Assembly: GCA_963843575.1 (NCBI GenBank)
Contig: CAWJKZ010000009.1
Span: 96,001 to 160,000, forward strand
DNA: 64,000 bases
Source of the DNA: an uncultured Acidobacteriota bacterium
Lineage (GTDB): Bacteria; Acidobacteriota; UBA6911
Direction of reading: 5' to 3'
A model generated the notes under the pieces. The model saw only the letters and a list, made by a program, of their open reading frames with translations. It was not told the DNA's origin and did not search any database. This document shows, piece by piece, positions 11,517 to 25,922 of this stretch; position 1 is the stretch's first letter; each line of letters opens with the position of its first letter. The translations under genes and the position numbers were made by a program.

Positions 11517-12088
11517 ATGCCATCCCCGCACGAAGTCACTCATCTGCTCCAGGCCTGGTGCGGCGGCGACCAGGCGGCCCTGGATAAGCTCGTCCCTCTG
11601 GTTTATGACGAACTGCACAGGCTGGCCCACATCTACATGGTGCGCGAGCGGCCGGGCCACACGCTGCAGACCAGTGCCCTGGTCAATGAGGCCTATCTCC
11701 GGCTCATCGATGCCAACCAGGTTCAGTGGCAGGACCGCACCCACTTTTTTGCCATCTCGGCCAATGTGATGCGCCGCATCCTGGTGCAATTTGCGCGCTC
11801 GCGCGGTTCCCGGAAGCGGGGCGGCGGCGCCGGGCAAGTGGACCTCGACGAAGCGCTCATTCCGTCGCCGGAACGCGATGCCGACCTGATGGCGCTGGAC
11901 GACGCGCTGACTGCGCTGGCCGCGATCGATCCGCGGGAAGGGAGGGTGGTGGAGCTGCGTTTTTTCGGCGGAATGAGCGTGGACGAGACCGCGGAGGTCC
12001 TGCACTCTCGGGCATGATGGTGAAGCGGGATTGGAATCATGCGAAGGCGTGGTTGCTGCAGGAGTTGAAACGAGGGGCGCGCGGATGA
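11517..12088 (+). CDS. ECF sigma factor (kinase-associated, TIGR02999-like), frameshifted near 12005
   Basis: EVTHLLQAW..GDQAALDKLVPLVYDELHRLA, HTLQTSALVNEAYLRL, VVELRFFGG. The C-terminus VKRDWNHAKAWL is in another frame, and its TGA overlaps the kinase ATG (ATGA at 12085-12088). Confidence 0.88.
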
Positions 12089-13947
12089 GTATCGATCGGT
12101 GGCAGCGGGTCAAGGAGATCTACAACTCGGCCCTGGATCTCGAGCCGGGAGGGCGCGAGGCCTACCTGCGAGAGGCCTGCGGGGGAGACCAGTCCCTGCG
12201 GCAAGAGGTCGAGGCTCTGCTGGCCAACCTGCCGGAGGCCGAGGGATTCATGAAGGATCCCGCAATGGAAGTGGCGGCCCGAGGTCTGGCGAAAGACCAG
12301 GAAAACGCGCTGGCGGGAGAGCTGGCGGGCCGCACCGTTTCGCATTACCGCATCATCGAAAAGATCGGCCAGGGGGGCATGGGAGAGGTATTCCTTGCCG
12401 AGGACACCTCCCTGCATCGCAAAGTCGCGCTGAAATTCCTGCCGCCGGAAATGCAGCGGGATCCCGTCGCCCGAAAGCGCTTCCTGCGGGAAGCCCATTC
12501 GGCCGCTGCGCTGGACAATCCCTACATCTGCAGCATCCATGAAGCCGGCGCGTTCGAAGGCAAGGACTTCATTGTAATGGAGTACGTGGACGGTCAAACA
12601 CTGATGGACAAGCTCCGTCGCCATCTGCCGCTGAAGCAGGTCCTGCAGATCGCCACAGAGGTTGCGGAGGCGCTGGAGGCGGCGCACGGGAAGGGGATCA
12701 TCCACCGGGACCTGAAGCCCGCGAACATCATGCTGGCGCAGACAGGTCATGCCAAGGTGATGGACTTCGGGCTGGCCAAGCAGTTGATTCCGCCCGGAGG
12801 AATCGGCAGCCAGGAAGAGTCGGTGACGGCGCTGACCCGAAGCGGGATGACGCTGGGGACTTTGGCCTACATGTCGCCGGAACAGTTACGGGGGGCGACC
12901 GTCGACGCCCGGTCGGACATTTTCTCGTTTGGCGTCGTTCTCTACGAGATGCTGGCCGGTGTTCATCCCTTCAAGAAGGAGACGGGGATGGACACAGCTG
13001 GCGCGATCCTCAACTCGGCGCCTCAGCCTGTTGGAGAGCTTCGCGCGGATACTCCCGCTCTGATCCAGCACATTGTGAGGAAGATGCTCGCCAAAGATCC
13101 GCAGGATCGGTATTCATCGATGCACGATGTAAAGACCGACCTGAAGGAGTTGATGGAGGAGTCGAATCGGCCGGCACCGGGGTTACGTCGAGGGCTTAAA
13201 CCTATGTGCTGGATTGCCGCAAGCGCATTGGTAGTCGTCGGCGTGGGAATCTGGACGTTTTTCATGTTCGCTCCTCGCGAGATGGCATTACCGCCACCGA
13301 GAATCGTGCCTGTAACAACGTCCGGTGGCGCAAATGCTGACCCGTCACTTTCACCGGATGGAAACTGGATCGCGTTTGTCTGGATGGGTGAAAAGCAGGA
13401 CAACTTGGACATCTACGTCAAAGAGTTGAATGGTCCCGGCTTCAATCGATTGACGACCGACCCGGCAGATGACTGGTGCCCCGCATGGTCTCCCGATGGC
13501 CTCCAGATCGCTTTCCTGCGATCCTCGGGGGATCGATGGATCCTGTACCTCATCAGCCCGTTGGGCGGTGGAGAAAGGAAATTGGCTGAGGTAGGCGGCG
13601 GAAAACTCAGCTGGTCGCCAGACGGAAAGAACATCGCGTTTAACGACAGGAAATCGCCGAAAGATCCGCCGAGTATCTGGTTGCTGTCGGTGGAAACGCT
13701 GGAAAAGAAGCAGATGACCGCCCCAGATGTAAGTTACTACGGCGACCATGGGCCGGCCTTTTCACCCAACGGTCGCTACCTTGCATTCGTCAGGTATATT
13801 GAGAGTTCAAGATCCGCGCTTTATGTCATGGATCTTCCCCGTGGAGAGCCAAGGCTTGTGACGGACTATAACTCTCCTGCGGGGCCATGCTGGACTGCCG
13901 ACAGCCGCGAGATTGTCTTCGCCACTGATCCTGTAACAGGAGAAACG
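12085..13947 (+). pseudogene. Ser/Thr protein kinase with TolB/WD40-like (PD40) repeats, 5' part, interrupted by IS1111 element
   Basis: IGQGGMGEVF, VALK, HRDLKPAN, DFGLAK, GTLAYMSPEQ, a TM helix and SPDG repeats. The frame is restored (TGET|ALWRI) when the IS is removed. Confidence 0.92.
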
Positions 13948-13995
13948 CATTATGAAAGCCCGCCGCGTGATATCGGCATTTATACATTGAAGGCC

Positions 13996-14333
13996 GGCTG
14001 TCTGGCGACAGCCCAGGGGCTCTGCCCCTGGCCCCGGGATTTTGTGAGGCATGACTCTGGTGTCCGATAGATAAATGAGGCCTCTGACGATTGTTAGTCG
14101 CCAGAGGCCCGATGCACCATCGGCGCACCGTCGGCCTGACTATCCCTTGCCGGGTTGCGTCCCCGCAGAGCCCGACGCCGTTTCGTCAGGCGGGCCCAGT
14201 CTAGCACGTAGGAGATTGCAGTTTTGAAGATTTGGTCGCGAGCATAGAAGACATCATGAAAAGAAGACGCTCCAACAGCGGTAAGATTGGGATCGGTTCA
14301 AGACACCACTCAAAACCGCCAAAGGAGCGTCTG
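13996..14333 (+). other. Structured non-coding left end of the IS (multiple hairpins, RBS-occluding stem)
   Basis: Hairpins at 13996-14013, 14013-14031, 14079-14109 and 14134-14191. AGACGCTCC (14265-14273) pairs with GGAGCGTCT (14324-14332) over the transposase RBS. Confidence 0.6.
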
Positions 14334-15386
14334 ATGAAAAAGTATATCGGCATGGATGTCCACAAAGCAACAACGGTGATAGCGGTTATCGGTGAGTCGG
14401 GCAAAAGGATTACTGACGGCGTGGTGGAAACATCCCCAGAGGCAATCCTGGATTTCATCAACGGGCAGCGCGGGGCGCTGCATGTCACTCTGGAGGAGTG
14501 CGCACAGGCGGCCTGGCTTTATGACATGCTCCGACCTTACGTCGCAGACGTGTTGGTCTGCGATCCACGCAAGATCGCCAAGGCAAGTAACAAGGCAGAC
14601 AAGTCCGATGCTGCGCGGCTGGCGGAGTTGCTTCGCACGAATGCGCTGACGCGAGTCTACCATGGCGAACAGAGCACTCTGGGATTGAAGGAACTCGCGC
14701 AGGGGTACGCCTGTTTAATCGAGGACAGGACCAGGGTCAAAAATCGCCTGAAGGCTTTGTTCCGGGCCCGCGGGATACCTTGTGAAGGCGCCGGAGTCTA
14801 CGGTCTTGAGGAACGGGAGGAGTGGCTGGCGAAACTGGACTCGGCAGCCGTGCGTGTCCGAGCTGGACGACTCTGCAATCAACTTGACTGCGCCGACTGG
14901 CTGTCGATAGAAGCGGAGCAGGAACTGACAGCTGAGGCACGGAAACATCCCGCTACAAAGATACTTCGCAGCATACCTGGAATCGGGTATGTGCGCGCCG
15001 CTGTAATCATCGGCGTCGCTGGTACTCCGCACCGATTTCGAACCAAGAGACAGTTCTGGAGTTACTGCGGGCTGGGTGTACGAACCGAGGCCAGTTCGGA
15101 ATACAAGATGCTCGCCGGGAAGGTCGTTCGATCCAACAGGCGGCCGCTTGTCCGCGGCTTGAATCAAAACTACAGCCGGGCGCTGAAGTCTGTGTTCAAG
15201 AGCGCGGCCAGGACTGTTGCCTCAGGACCGTGGCGGTCATATTTCGAGGCCATGATCGAAAACGGCACCCCTGAATCACTGGCATACCTGACTTTGGCGA
15301 GGAAGATTGCGTCGGTCACGCTGGCACTCTGGAAAAGAGGAGAACGCTATAGCCAAAAGAAACTGAAGATACCGCACGCGGCATGA
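14334..15386 (+). CDS. IS110-family transposase (DEDD recombinase)
   Basis: MKKYIGMDVHK, LEE, KADKSDAARLAELLR, SIPGIG, F.....FWSYCGL, SS, LARK. AAAGGAG RBS before ATG 14334. Confidence 0.96.
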   Translation: MKKYIGMDVHKATTVIAVIGESGKRITDGVVETSPEAILDFINGQRGALHVTLEECAQAAWLYDMLRPYVADVLVCDPRKIAKASNKADKSDAARLAELLRTNALTRVYHGEQSTLGLKELAQGYACLIEDRTRVKNRLKALFRARGIPCEGAGVYGLEEREEWLAKLDSAAVRVRAGRLCNQLDCADWLSIEAEQELTAEARKHPATKILRSIPGIGYVRAAVIIGVAGTPHRFRTKRQFWSYCGLGVRTEASSEYKMLAGKVVRSNRRPLVRGLNQNYSRALKSVFKSAARTVASGPWRSYFEAMIENGTPESLAYLTLARKIASVTLALWKRGERYSQKKLKIPHAA

Positions 15387-15575
15387 AGCGTCTCGAGGAC
15401 CGACTGAGCAGGTCGGCAATGGTATTCAAATTGAAACCCGAACGAGACGCGAGGTCGAGGGTGAGTCTCAAGAACGCCGTTAGGCCCGGAGATGGAGTCT
15501 CCTTGAAACCATAGGCCCCCTCGCATGACCAAATAAAGCAATAGGCTTCCAAGTCTCAGATAGGACCATGGTCGG
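15387..15575 (+). ncRNA. Predicted bridge/seek RNA (target- and donor-binding loops)
   Basis: GAACGCCGT (15472-15480) and GAAAC (15505-15509) match the two strands of the target. ATAAAGC (15533-15539) and ATAGGAC (15560-15566) match the donor junction. Each pair sits in an internal loop. Confidence 0.8.
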
Positions 15576-15771
15576 CAACACGGCCGCTGTGCTTTGAAAG
15601 TCTCGAACGGATTTGAATTCCGCTGCCCCTTGAACAGCCGGCTTCGTATGCATAGTGCATGCGTTATTCCGGAAATGATCGCAGGATCAGCAGGGCAGCA
15701 CTGAACGAGCGTTGGCTGGATGTCGTGGACCGAAAAAACGCGCCCTGTTCCTGGGGCGGAAGAGTTTGTCC

Positions 15772-15777
15772 TTGACA
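15772..15777 (+). promoter_or_regulatory. -35 box of the circle-junction promoter
   Basis: TTGACA. On circularisation it is exactly 17 bp from CATTAT (13948-13953). Confidence 0.75.
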
Positions 15778-15791
15778 TCCGCTTTCATAGG

Positions 15792-16769
15792 ACGGCGTTG
15801 TGGCGGATCTTCGTGGACGGCGGAGAGCCTCGCAGAGTCCCGGCACGTGGCGAGCGGGTTCATCAGCCCACGGTCAGCCGGAATCGTCTGGCGTACCGAA
15901 GCCTAACCTATAACTCGGATATTTGGAGAATGGAGCTGACCGGGCAGGGGGCGATGAAACCGCCATCGAAGCCTTTATTCTCCTGGTCGTCAGGTGAGAT
16001 AGACCAGCGTATTTCGCCGGACGGAAGCAGGATTGCCTTCGCGTCCGACAGTTCAGGAAGCTTGGAGATCTGGGTTTGCCATGCCGACGGCACAAAGCCG
16101 ATGAAGCGCACCGAAATGAAAGCCGGAAGCACCGGCAGTCCAAACTGGTCTCCCGACGGCAAGAACATCGCTTTCGATTCCACCAAATCGGGGAATGGCG
16201 ATATTTATGTGGTCAGCGCGGAAGGAGGGCCGGTACGCCGCATCACAACTGATCCAACGGAAGAGGTGGTCCCCCGCTGGTCACGGGACGGTCGCTGGAT
16301 CTACTTCGGCTCGAACAGGAGCGGGACCTGGCAGATCTGGAAGATGCCGTCCGATGGAGGCAAGGCGATTCAGATCACCAAGGACGGAGGCATGGTGGCC
16401 CGCGAATCAGCCGATGGGCAGCTCGTGTACTACCATGGTTACTATAATCTTCAGAAAAAAGGTGTGTGGCGAGTGCCGGTATCGGACGGCCAGGAGACGC
16501 TCGTACTGGACAAAGAGATTGACCCCCATAATTGGGATTTGACAGACCGGGGCATCTACTTCATTGATGGCAGTGGCACCGTCAGCCTATGGCGACCATA
16601 TGCTTCTACGATTTTGCGACCCGGTCCATAAGGACTCTGACTCCTGTCCATGGTGCTCCAGGATTTGTGGGTAGATGAGGGTTTGAGCGTCTCGCCCGAC
16701 GGTAAGTGGCTTCTCTACTCCGGTGGGATCTTCACTTCCGACATCATGATGATCGACAACTTCCGCTGA
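15792..16769 (+). pseudogene. 3' part of the interrupted kinase/TolB-repeat gene (frameshifts near 16570-16680)
   Basis: ISPDGSRIAFASD, WSPDGKNIAFDS, WSRDGRWIYFGSNRSG, ending GLSVSPDGKWLLY...SDIMMIDNFR*. Confidence 0.88.
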
Positions 16770-23926: not shown

Positions 23927-24199
23927 GACTGCCACTGGCTGTCGCTCACCTTGCCCAGCGAGGGGTGATTGACGCGAACGCCGTCCTATGAAAGCGGATG
24001 TCAAGGACAAACTCTTCCGCCCCAGGAACAGGGCGCGTTTTTTCGGTCCACGACATCCAGCCAACGCTCATTCAGTGCTGCCCTGCTGATCCTGCGACAC
24101 TTCCGGAATAACGCATGCACTATGCATACGAAGCCGGCTGTTCAAGGGGCAGCGGAATTCAAATCCGTTCGAGACTTTCAAAGCACAGCGGCCGTGTTG

Positions 24200-24388
24200 C
24201 CGACCATGGTCCTATCTGAGACTTGGAAGCCTATTGCTTTATTTGGTCATGCGAGGGGGCCTATGGTTTCAAGGAGACTCCATCTCCGGGCCTAACGGCG
24301 TTCTTGAGACTCACCCTCGACCTCGCGTCTCGTTCGGGTTTCAATTTGAATACCATTGCCGACCTGCTCAGTCGGTCCTCGAGACGCT
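24200..24388 (-). ncRNA. Predicted bridge/seek RNA, copy 2
   Basis: Same guide segments as 15387..15575. Confidence 0.8.
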
Positions 24389-25441
24389 TCATGCCGCGTG
24401 CGGTATCTTCAGTTTCTTTTGGCTATAGCGTTCTCCTCTTTTCCAGAGTGCCAGCGTGACCGACGCAATCTTCCTCGCCAAAGTCAGGTATGCCAGTGAT
24501 TCAGGGGTGCCGTTTTCGATCATGGCCTCGAAATATGACCGCCACGGTCCTGAGGCAACAGTCCTGGCCGCGCTCTTGAACACAGACTTCAGCGCCCGGC
24601 TGTAGTTTTGATTCAAGCCGCGGACAAGCGGCCGCCTGTTGGATCGAACGACCTTCCCGGCGAGCATCTTGTATTCCGAACTGGCCTCGGTTCGTACACC
24701 CAGCCCGCAGTAACTCCAGAACTGTCTCTTGGTTCGAAATCGGTGCGGAGTACCAGCGACGCCGATGATTACAGCGGCGCGCACATACCCGATTCCAGGT
24801 ATGCTGCGAAGTATCTTTGTAGCGGGATGTTTCCGTGCCTCAGCTGTCAGTTCCTGCTCCGCTTCTATCGACAGCCAGTCGGCGCAGTCAAGTTGATTGC
24901 AGAGTCGTCCAGCTCGGACACGCACGGCTGCCGAGTCCAGTTTCGCCAGCCACTCCTCCCGTTCCTCAAGACCGTAGACTCCGGCGCCTTCACAAGGTAT
25001 CCCGCGGGCCCGGAACAAAGCCTTCAGGCGATTTTTGACCCTGGTCCTGTCCTCGATTAAACAGGCGTACCCCTGCGCGAGTTCCTTCAATCCCAGAGTG
25101 CTCTGTTCGCCATGGTAGACTCGCGTCAGCGCATTCGTGCGAAGCAACTCCGCCAGCCGCGCAGCATCGGACTTGTCTGCCTTGTTACTTGCCTTGGCGA
25201 TCTTGCGTGGATCGCAGACCAACACGTCTGCGACGTAAGGTCGGAGCATGTCATAAAGCCAGGCCGCCTGTGCGCACTCCTCCAGAGTGACATGCAGCGC
25301 CCCGCGCTGCCCGTTGATGAAATCCAGGATTGCCTCTGGGGATGTTTCCACCACGCCGTCAGTAATCCTTTTGCCCGACTCACCGATAACCGCTATCACC
25401 GTTGTTGCTTTGTGGACATCCATGCCGATATACTTTTTCAT
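24389..25441 (-). CDS. IS110-family transposase
   Basis: Protein identical to 14334..15386. Confidence 0.96.
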   Translation of the reverse strand: MKKYIGMDVHKATTVIAVIGESGKRITDGVVETSPEAILDFINGQRGALHVTLEECAQAAWLYDMLRPYVADVLVCDPRKIAKASNKADKSDAARLAELLRTNALTRVYHGEQSTLGLKELAQGYACLIEDRTRVKNRLKALFRARGIPCEGAGVYGLEEREEWLAKLDSAAVRVRAGRLCNQLDCADWLSIEAEQELTAEARKHPATKILRSIPGIGYVRAAVIIGVAGTPHRFRTKRQFWSYCGLGVRTEASSEYKMLAGKVVRSNRRPLVRGLNQNYSRALKSVFKSAARTVASGPWRSYFEAMIENGTPESLAYLTLARKIASVTLALWKRGERYSQKKLKIPHAA

Positions 25442-25922
25442 CAGACGCTCCTTTGGCGGTTTTGAGTGGTGTCTTGAACCGATCCCAATCTTACCGCTGT
25501 TGGAGCGTCTTCTTTTCATGATGTCTTCTATGCTCGCGACCAAATCTTCAAAACTGCAATCTCCTACGTGCTAGACTGGGCCCGCCTGACGAAACGGCGT
25601 CGGGCTCTGCGGGGACGCAACCCGGCAAGGGATAGTCAGGCCGACGGTGCGCCGATGGTGCATCGGGCCTCTGGCGACTAACAATCGTCAGAGGCCTCAT
25701 TTATCTATCGGACACCAGAGTCATGCCTCACAAAATCCCGGGGCCAGGGGCAGAGCCCCTGGGCTGTCGCCAGACAGCCGGCCTTCAATGTATAAATGCC
25801 GATATCACGCGGCGGGCTTTCATAATGCGTTTCGGAGTCTCTTGTCATGAATTAAGCTGTAAGTAGTTGTTCCCGCTGAGGTAAAATGACATTATCAAGA
25901 GTGGTTCGAGGCGGAGATACAC

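Follow-up and report, generated by a model that had tools for sequence, protein, structure and literature searches.

The window analysed here is a stretch of 64,000 nucleotides (nt) from an uncultured Acidobacteriota bacterium of the lineage UBA6911 (assembly GCA_963843575.1, contig CAWJKZ010000009.1, below C9, positions 96,001 to 160,000 of the forward strand). The assembly comprises 6.68 Mb and is 88% complete. The window contains two copies of an insertion sequence (IS) of the IS110 family, IS1111 type, whose sole protein is a transposase of 350 amino acids (aa). Downstream of the transposase gene of copy 1, the region from 15387 to about 15620 very probably encodes the bridge RNA (seekRNA) of this element. 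The role of an RNA as guide is supported because a variant with the guide GATAC can be compared with its sites, because guides and flanks match in 20 related elements and because stems covary in 71 related sequences.

The element, its transposase and its insertion sites

IS copy 1, its surroundings and IS copy 2 comprise the following features (position 1 is the first letter of the window):

13942..13946, + strand: left flank GAAAC; target right half plus core AC (13945-46), read on the transposase strand
13947..15793, + strand: IS copy 1, 1847 base pairs (bp); IS110 family, IS1111 type
13951..13959, + strand: left subterminal inverted repeat TATGAAAGC, reverse complement of 15781-89
14334..15386, + strand: transposase gene, 350 aa; DEDD RuvC-like domain and Tnp domain
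15387..15620, + strand: putative bridge RNA/seekRNA gene, approximate extent; conserved in relatives
15781..15789, + strand: right subterminal inverted repeat GCTTTCATA
15794..15799, + strand: right flank GGCGTT; target left half in reverse complement, identical at 5/5 full-length copies
23983..25828, - strand: IS copy 2, 1846 bp; putative bridge RNA gene at ~24155-24388, left target guide at 24295-24303

The span of copy 1 is counted from the base after the left core to the right copy of the core, AC (15792-93). The subterminal inverted repeats TATGAAAGC and GCTTTCATA have 9 bp each and are located 4 bases inside either end; IS1111 elements have such repeats of 7-17 bp. As is typical of IS1111, a long non-coding region with the guide RNA lies 3' of the transposase gene. 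This right end has 407 nt, but the left non-coding end (387 nt) is long too.

The transposase gene is preceded by an AAGGAG ribosome-binding site. Its product matches PF01548 (E 1.3e-16) and PF02371 (E 1.1e-11), both above the curated Pfam cut-offs, as well as the NCBIfam model NF033542 'IS110 family RNA-guided transposase' (146.4 bits, cut-off 140). Together with the subterminal repeats, the downstream RNA and the strand order of its guides (see below), these matches bear out the IS110/IS1111 bridge RNA or seekRNA architecture that a preliminary description, made from the sequence alone, had proposed. In comparisons with solved structures, the C-terminal domain alone aligns, and weakly so (ISCro4, E 8e-7; IS621, E 2e-5). 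Judged by these alignments, the transposase is a distant relative of the studied enzymes. D8, E54, E55, D89 and D92 are invariant across 27 homologues. S254 is part of a GL....S(S/A/G) motif, aligns with the S of 'SG' in ISCro4 and is S or T in 27 of 27 homologues. Based on alignment and published papers, D8, E54/E55, D89, D92 and S254 are candidate catalytic residues. The Tnp motif reads GLGVRTEASS here and GL.(V/I).....(S/T)(S/A/G) in relatives. Compared to the IS1111 motif GL-P----S(t)G, the spacing and S/T are kept, whereas P and G are not.

Three near-identical copies of the main type (99.8-100% identity, open frames) are present in the genome, two of them in the window and one on contig C10. 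In addition, there are two near-identical copies of an 85% identical variant (C9 and C15) and one broken copy of a 71% identical relative (C10). All five full-length copies are inserted in one orientation between NNNAC and GGCGTT. This means, insertion is sequence-specific and oriented, and nothing but the core dinucleotide is duplicated. Read on the transposase strand, the left flank is GAAAC at both copies in the window, GGAAC at the third main-type copy, and GATAC and AATAC, respectively, at the two variant copies; the right flank GGCGTT is shared by 5/5 copies. Since the left flank and the element both terminate in AC, this dinucleotide (GT on the opposite strand) can be regarded as the shared core. 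Both the GT/AC core and a common empty site had been claimed before, and both claims hold: The two copies in the window rejoin to the same site with the flanks GAAAC and GGCGTT, and this site, GAAACGGCGTT, is intact on contig C22, where it runs together with 12 further identical bases (23 in total) uninterrupted through a paralogous gene. Exact free target 11-mers do not exceed chance in the genome (5 versus 6 for a reversed control). The suggestion that the element was recently active fits both the 99.8-100% identity of the three copies and further junctions, outside this assembly, in contigs of two metagenome runs (X1, X3). The latter stem from Logan contigs of four DNA runs. These are short pieces, at least one run may be the source sample, and the junctions were used as extra sites only. 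Two apparent joints among the run contigs, at 13735-13887 and 15578-15771, were not interpreted, as their sides are short or they belong to diverged relatives.

Copy 1 splits a Ser/Thr kinase-PD40 gene, leaving the kinase and PD40 domains on either side. The interrupted gene, whose PD40 part resembles a TolB-like propeller, comprises 12031-13946 and 15794-16631. The insertion site corresponds to the motif G-E-T-A-L-W-R, which is common to paralogues on C14, C24 and C22 (L008, L009, L010); the exact target is found in the C22 paralogue only. L115, a relative from another Acidobacteriota metagenome-assembled genome (MAG) with an 89% identical transposase, is inserted in a similar sequence (GAGAAAC / GGCGTTGTGG). 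The right flanks of copy 2 (23940-23982) and of one variant copy (L004) are alike over 17 bases (GGCGTTCGCGTCAATCA). A short repeated genomic sequence may carry the target of these copies.

As to the transposase start, translation could also begin at an in-frame ATG 78 nt further upstream (14256), and the protein would then gain a basic segment of 26 aa (MKRRRSNSGKIG...). The segment 14256-14333 is nearly identical between the 85% identical variants, and many database homologues comprise 375-379 aa and not 350-352 aa. The true start may be located upstream of 14334. Residues 119-305 of the transposase also match NCBIfam NF052498 'TIGR-Tas system RNA-guided endonuclease', but the score of 60.5 bits stays below the cut-off of 100. 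In the left non-coding end, a block of about 200 nt (13995-14208) is 78-80% identical in relatives whose transposases share only 60-70%. It contains GGTTGCGTCCCCGCAGAGCC and two terminator-like hairpins (14016-35 on the + strand, 14078-14110 on the - strand). Relatives of about 1535-1550 bp are ~300 nt shorter than copy 1. Within the left end, GACGCCGTTTC (14174-84) resembles the element's own target in 10 of 11 bases and was considered as a copy of it. This candidate was rejected, because the motif GACTCCGTTTC is conserved there in relatives with unrelated targets, which makes the resemblance coincidental.

The predicted guide RNA gene and its two loops

The predicted RNA consists of a 5' domain and two stem-enclosed internal loops:

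15388..15450, + strand: 5' domain; possible helix GCGTCTCG (15388-95)/CGAGACGC (15443-50) enclosing an inner hairpin
15456..15523, + strand: target-binding loop; helix P1 CGAGGG (15456-61)/CCCTCG (15518-23), helix P2 GUCU (15465-68)/AGGC (15513-16)
15472..15480, + strand: left target guide GAACGCCGT; GAACGCC plus core GT, i.e. target left half and core
15488..15502, + strand: distal hairpin GGAGAU/GUCUCC
15505..15509, + strand: right target guide GAAAC; GAA plus core AC, equal to the left flank and complementary to the - strand
15526..15574, + strand: donor-binding loop; helix P3 UGACC (15526-30)/GGUCG (15570-74), helix P4 AGGCU (15543-47)/AGUCU (15552-56)
15533..15539, + strand: left donor guide ATAAAGC; 6/7 to ATAATGC, i.e. 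IS bases 1-7 in reverse complement
15560..15566, + strand: right donor guide ATAGGAC; ATAGG plus core AC, identical to the 7-base IS terminus 15787-93

Every motif named in the preliminary description is present at its place or one base from it, and both loops decode as proposed there, with guides matching the target flanks and the element ends. Between main type and variant, the RNA stretch is 92-93% identical, compared to 85% for whole elements. In the 5' domain, GTCTCG (15600-05) is an alternative partner of CGAGACGC; as read from the alignment, both pairings stay complementary in L038 and L039.

Right flank plus core, read in reverse complement, give the left target guide GAACGCCGT, with 9/9 matching bases at four genomic copies and 8/9 at copy 1. 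The sense of this guide is that of the strand opposite the transposase, so that it would pair with the transposase-sense strand; it is complementary to ACGGCGTTC on the + strand. By chance, the 9-mer should occur about once in 64 kb, both strands counted (shuffle mean 0.98), and six occurrences were found. Since about one is expected in the whole window, its presence inside this one loop is not due to chance. The second guide, GAAAC, follows 3' of it and matches the other strand. As in IS1111 elements, the match to the transposase-sense strand thus lies 5' of the match to the other strand, an order reported by Siddiquee et al. (2024, PMC11187229). In the target loop, both site strands are matched, the two matches overlap at the core, and the guides covary with the sites among relatives.

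The distal hairpin of the target loop folds well thermodynamically here. GGAGA/TCTCC had been described before and does exist in copy 1, but it is not conserved in the family: In relatives, AGGC pairs with GUCU instead (here 15482-85/15497-500; 84.6% paired in 71 sequences), and in the variant an A to C exchange at 15492 breaks the GGAGA/TCTCC hairpin without compensation. For the donor loop, the stem GACCA (15527-31)/TGGTC (15569-73) had been suggested. It is present, but the conserved register, UGACC/GGUCG, is one base off. CAT follows both right guides, as had been observed, and part of each CAT spacer abuts the closing stem.

The right donor guide is located at a fixed position and matches the element end with 7/7 bases in 91 of 96 related elements. 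It changes with the end, and five words were found: ATAGGAC, ATAGAAC, ATAGGAT, ATAGAAT and ATAGGTC. Throughout the clade, position 5 of the left donor guide is always A opposite T of the end, and position 2 is free. Its core positions, AA here, are variable in relatives and face a core GT or AT. Position 4 tracks the end, with A accompanying ATAATGC and T accompanying ATATTGC; this tracking may go back to a single ancestral change in one lineage. A match to both ends including the core was therefore found for the right half only. The RNA had been called fully decodable, which applies to the right donor guide (7/7) and not to the left one (6/7, core unmatched with AA versus GT).

Past the right donor guide, the segment 15569-15586 can form a terminator-like hairpin (GGUCGGC...GCCG, then CUGUGCUUUG). 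This hairpin overlaps the 3' strand of P3, and the two structures are mutually exclusive. Among relatives, 22 of 52 have a perfect hairpin of a similar type, GGUUGGC/GCCAACC, versus 153 of 762 comparisons in a cross control. With these figures, the hairpin was not retained as a conserved alternative to P3.

Relatives, natural retargeting and covariation

The transposase has many relatives. Among 8000 candidates scored, 7427 match at E <= 0.001, many of them with 60-88% identity. Eighty metagenome and 80 genome loci were collected, plus 23 loci from a phylum sample of 401 genomes, 12 of which had a match. A homologous RNA segment was found in 153 of 194 loci, and the named loci belong almost exclusively to MAGs of Acidobacteriota/Terriglobia. 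The lineage had been considered poorly sampled, which these numbers contradict. Element ends were located by patterns for conserved ends, as a generic inverted-repeat search proved too noisy. In this way, both flanks were obtained for 96 of 156 RNA hits. These 96 elements were reduced to 20 representatives whose 13-nt right-guide regions differ at more than 3 positions. In the representatives, the left target half plus core matches the element's own RNA in 8.20 of 9 positions on average versus 5.67 for the RNAs of other elements. For the right target half plus core, the corresponding values are 6.25 of 7 versus 4.65. None of 2000 permutations of guides and flanks reached the observed sum.

The two guide alleles in this genome provide a case of natural retargeting. 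In the target loop, the variant differs from the main type at 15492 (in the hairpin), at 15503-04 and at 15507, where an A to T exchange converts the guide GAAAC into GATAC. The variant copies are found at GATAC and AATAC. Elements with the GAAAC guide occupy GAAAC twice and GGAAC once in this genome. L115, whose right target guide is GAAAC, is likewise inserted at GAAAC, and three left junctions in the X1 and X3 contigs keep GAAAC, with outer flanks unlike any site in the assembly. Taken together, guide base and site base agree in 7 cases with the GAAAC guide against 2 with the GATAC guide without exception, although numbers are small and the contigs may partly come from the source sample. 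RNA-guided target choice is therefore supported by natural retargeting and by covariation of guides and flanks in the sequences compared.

For the structure, an alignment (A2) of 71 sequences that are less than 90% identical was used, plus the variant. Seventy of 156 candidates were kept, and L004 was added by hand; L007_0, L006_0, L106_1, L106_2, L026_0, L126_0 and L108_0 are interrupted, partial or duplicated and were left out. In this alignment, 94.9% of the cells of 27 named pairs are paired versus 27-51% when the partners are slid by 1-3 columns. Two-sided changes occur in 18 pairs versus 4-10 after sliding, and none of 500 shuffles reached any of five measures. The structure was partly derived from the same 71 sequences, so that it is favoured over the slid controls; the two-sided changes are independent of that. 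P1 and P2 are paired in 98.6% and 98.2%, respectively, and pair 71-145 changed on both sides in 15 sequences. For the donor-loop helices 5-7, the values are 96.9%, 98.6% and 94.3%, and pair 158-219 changed on both sides in 14 sequences. This means, two stem-enclosed internal loops are kept through compensatory changes. The two guides of each loop therefore lie on opposite sides of an internal loop with a basal and a distal helix, as in IS621.

Two further observations concern the guide RNA gene in relatives. In the 71% relative (L007/L006; C10 ~639414-642556, - strand), an unrelated IS of 1326 bp (L007:1784-3109) is located in the bridge RNA gene. It has terminal inverted repeats GCAGGATGCTGAAA and a 372-aa open reading frame, and appears by eye to be DDE-type and IS5-like. 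As it sits in CTAG directly 3' of the right target guide, the guide RNA is split. Self-insertion of the relative at its own guide was considered and rejected in view of the separate inverted repeats and reading frame of this unrelated IS. In the unrelated relatives L106 (2687-3317) and L026 (reverse strand, near its second RNA hit), the element tail is tandemly repeated from just past the right target guide to the right end. The repeat in L106 consists of 261-bp units in at least 2.4 copies, with 252 of 261 bases identical. At the repeat junctions of both, the right end meets the core AC inside the DNA that codes for the right target guide, which suggests that guide-coding DNA can itself act as a half-target.

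Proposed mechanism, rival explanations and known systems

Two further sequence features enter a possible pathway:

15772..15777, + strand: TTGACA, candidate -35 box of a junction promoter; a right-end pattern starting with it follows 135 of 156 RNA hits
13948..13953, + strand: CATTAT, putative -10 box, 17 nt after TTGACA if 15793 is joined to 13947

Anatomy, site specificity, guide/flank matches, natural retargeting and stem covariation are observed here; synthesis of the RNA, the circle, the promoter and the chemistry are inferred as follows. By analogy with IS621 and ISEc11, the element would excise as a circle. The joined ends would set TTGACA 17 nt upstream of CATTAT, and a transcript comprising the transposase gene and the 3' RNA could arise. 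Junction promoters of the IS110 family have been described (PMC11187229, PMC12288879), and so has transcription through the transposase gene into the RNA with subsequent processing (PMC12288879, PMC11187229). The RNA would then be processed and bound by the DEDD/Ser recombinase. In the target loop, GAACGCCGU would pair with one strand of the target left half and core, and GAAAC with the other strand of core and right half. In the donor loop, pairing of AUAAAGC with the left end would be imperfect. Through recombination at the GT/AC core, the element would be inserted in one orientation without duplication except for the core.

Several points weigh against this explanation. The left donor guide is weak, with 6/7 matches here and 5-6/9 including the core across the family, and its core positions read AA versus the core GT; IS621 pairs the core in all four guides. 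Handshake pairing of the IS621 type (Hiraizumi et al., 2024, PMC11208158), in which the bases that follow the right guides pair with the respective other DNA at positions 6-7, is not evident by eye, as CA after both right guides faces GC at donor positions 6-7 and CC at target positions 6-7. The 3' strand of P3 can alternatively pair with 15581-85, a pairing weakly supported in relatives. The right target guide spans only 3 bases past the core, and one mismatch is tolerated at 2/5 genomic sites. The fold energy of the stretch alone, calculated with ViennaRNA, is no better than that of shuffles (z -1.3, -0.1), and an Rfam scan of 13800-15900 yielded no family at E <= 1. Folding had been suggested as a check of the RNA; energy does not set the stretch apart, and the stems are supported by covariation in relatives instead. 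A promoter scan detected 0 sigma-70-like sites inside the element. The lack of an internal promoter fits a junction promoter or an outside promoter without proving either. No RNA run is among the listed sequencing runs, and the transcript, its ends and its processing are predictions.

One rival explanation dispenses with the RNA altogether: The internal copies of end and target could be protein-binding sites or relics of recombination. Consistent with this, ATAGGAC is present both inside the element and at its end, RNA expression is putative, the fold energy is unremarkable, and the DNA of the right target guide served as a recombination site in two relatives. However, compensatory changes keep four stems paired in 71 sequences, which a DNA site would not need. 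Moreover, the target halves are stored in the loop in opposite senses like in experimentally proven bridge and seek RNAs, and the guides covary with the flanks. An explanation at the DNA level alone therefore appears extremely improbable. Hardly more credible is a genuine RNA and element that are immobile, i.e. a fossil family kept by drift. Activity is presumed, and insertion of another IS has disrupted one relative in the same genome. By contrast, the three main-type copies have open frames and 99.8-100% identity, the two variant copies are nearly identical to each other, and contigs of two runs contain extra junctions absent from the assembly.

The rival that deserves somewhat more attention, although it is improbable as well, leaves guidance to the target loop alone. 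In a short seekRNA of this kind, the donor ends would be read mainly by the protein via the subterminal repeats, and the second loop would be structural. The left donor guide is imperfect family-wide and ignores the core, and the P3 stem competes with the downstream hairpin. For IS1111-type transposases, the main bound RNAs comprise 82-96 nt, and no matches other than those to the target are described in them by Siddiquee et al. (2024, PMC11187229). On the other hand, the right donor guide matches the IS end with 7/7 bases in 91/96 elements at a fixed position and in five co-changing words, and P3 and P4 covary. The left donor guide tracks the end at position 4, too, although this may be a single event in one lineage. 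A bridge RNA with a target and a donor loop remains our preferred reading. A more specific proposal, which we regard as unlikely yet worth stating, is that donor recognition is split in the Acidobacteriota clade, with the right end recognized via the RNA (7/7, covarying) and the left end, whose guide would have lost its core pairing and carries fixed A-for-T mismatches, largely via the protein at the subterminal repeat. It would fit because the closing stem of the donor loop competes with the downstream hairpin and because guide DNA was used as crossover site in two relatives, leading to tandem tail duplications. If true, a clade with split recognition would stand as a natural intermediate between seekRNAs that read the target only and full bridge RNAs, and it would be inherently liable to self-targeting.

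Four IS1111 members, ISEc11, ISPa11, ISKpn4 and ISPst6, have been bench-tested for seekRNAs according to Siddiquee et al. (2024, PMC11187229). By description, the present element resembles them in that the RNA lies 3' of the transposase gene, that inverted repeats are located subterminally and that the transposase comprises ~350 aa. It also shares with them the strand order, the transposase-sense strand being matched in the 5' part and the opposite strand in the 3' part with overlap at the crossover, and has a candidate right-end -35 box of a junction promoter as they do. Guide-base changes accompany changed sites in related IS in both cases; redirection by guide changes has already been published for ISMch6 versus ISEc21 (PMC11187229). 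Both non-coding ends are long here, which was reported for a minority of IS (26 of >350; PMC11187229). The Tnp motif, GLGVRTEASS instead of GL-P----S(t)G, and the Acidobacteriota host differ as well. With bridge RNAs predicted by covariance models in the right ends of 93% of the ISfinder IS1111 elements (PMC11208160), e.g. ISCARN28, ISAzs32 and ISPa11, it shares the right-end location and a target/donor complementarity of 8-14 nt. According to the same source, many of these have a multi-loop donor site, whereas a simple internal loop is found here.

The comparison with IS621 (Durrant et al., 2024, PMC11208160; PMC11208158) reveals target and donor internal loops in both, and the DEDD/Ser recombinase of IS621 has a candidate counterpart here. 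Also common to both is a 5' guide of 7 + 2 nt that exceeds the 3' guide in length, the two meeting at a core dinucleotide ending in T. There are several differences from IS621 as described in these sources. The RNA is located in the right end here and in the left end there, it would be transcribed towards the element end, and relative to the transposase its strand order is the opposite one. The cores are GT here and CT there, the left donor guide lacks core pairing, and handshake complementarity was not seen. The proteins are distantly related, with an alignment confined to the C-terminal domain (E 2e-5).

The element is thus a new, well-behaved Acidobacteriota member of a kind known since 2024, as judged from its sequence, and its clade may already be contained in published tables. 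It adds a cleanly decodable pair of IS1111-type recombinase and guide RNA from Acidobacteriota and leaves the known picture unchanged. The alignment of 71 related RNAs fixes stems and guide registers and allows a family-wide view of the imperfect left donor guide. This is useful for bridge-recombinase mining and for asking how far donor recognition in IS1111 is RNA-based. Two guide alleles in one genome, each with sites of its own, represent a natural read-out of specificity at one right-target position. Specialists might take up these within-genome guide alleles and the degenerate left donor guide.

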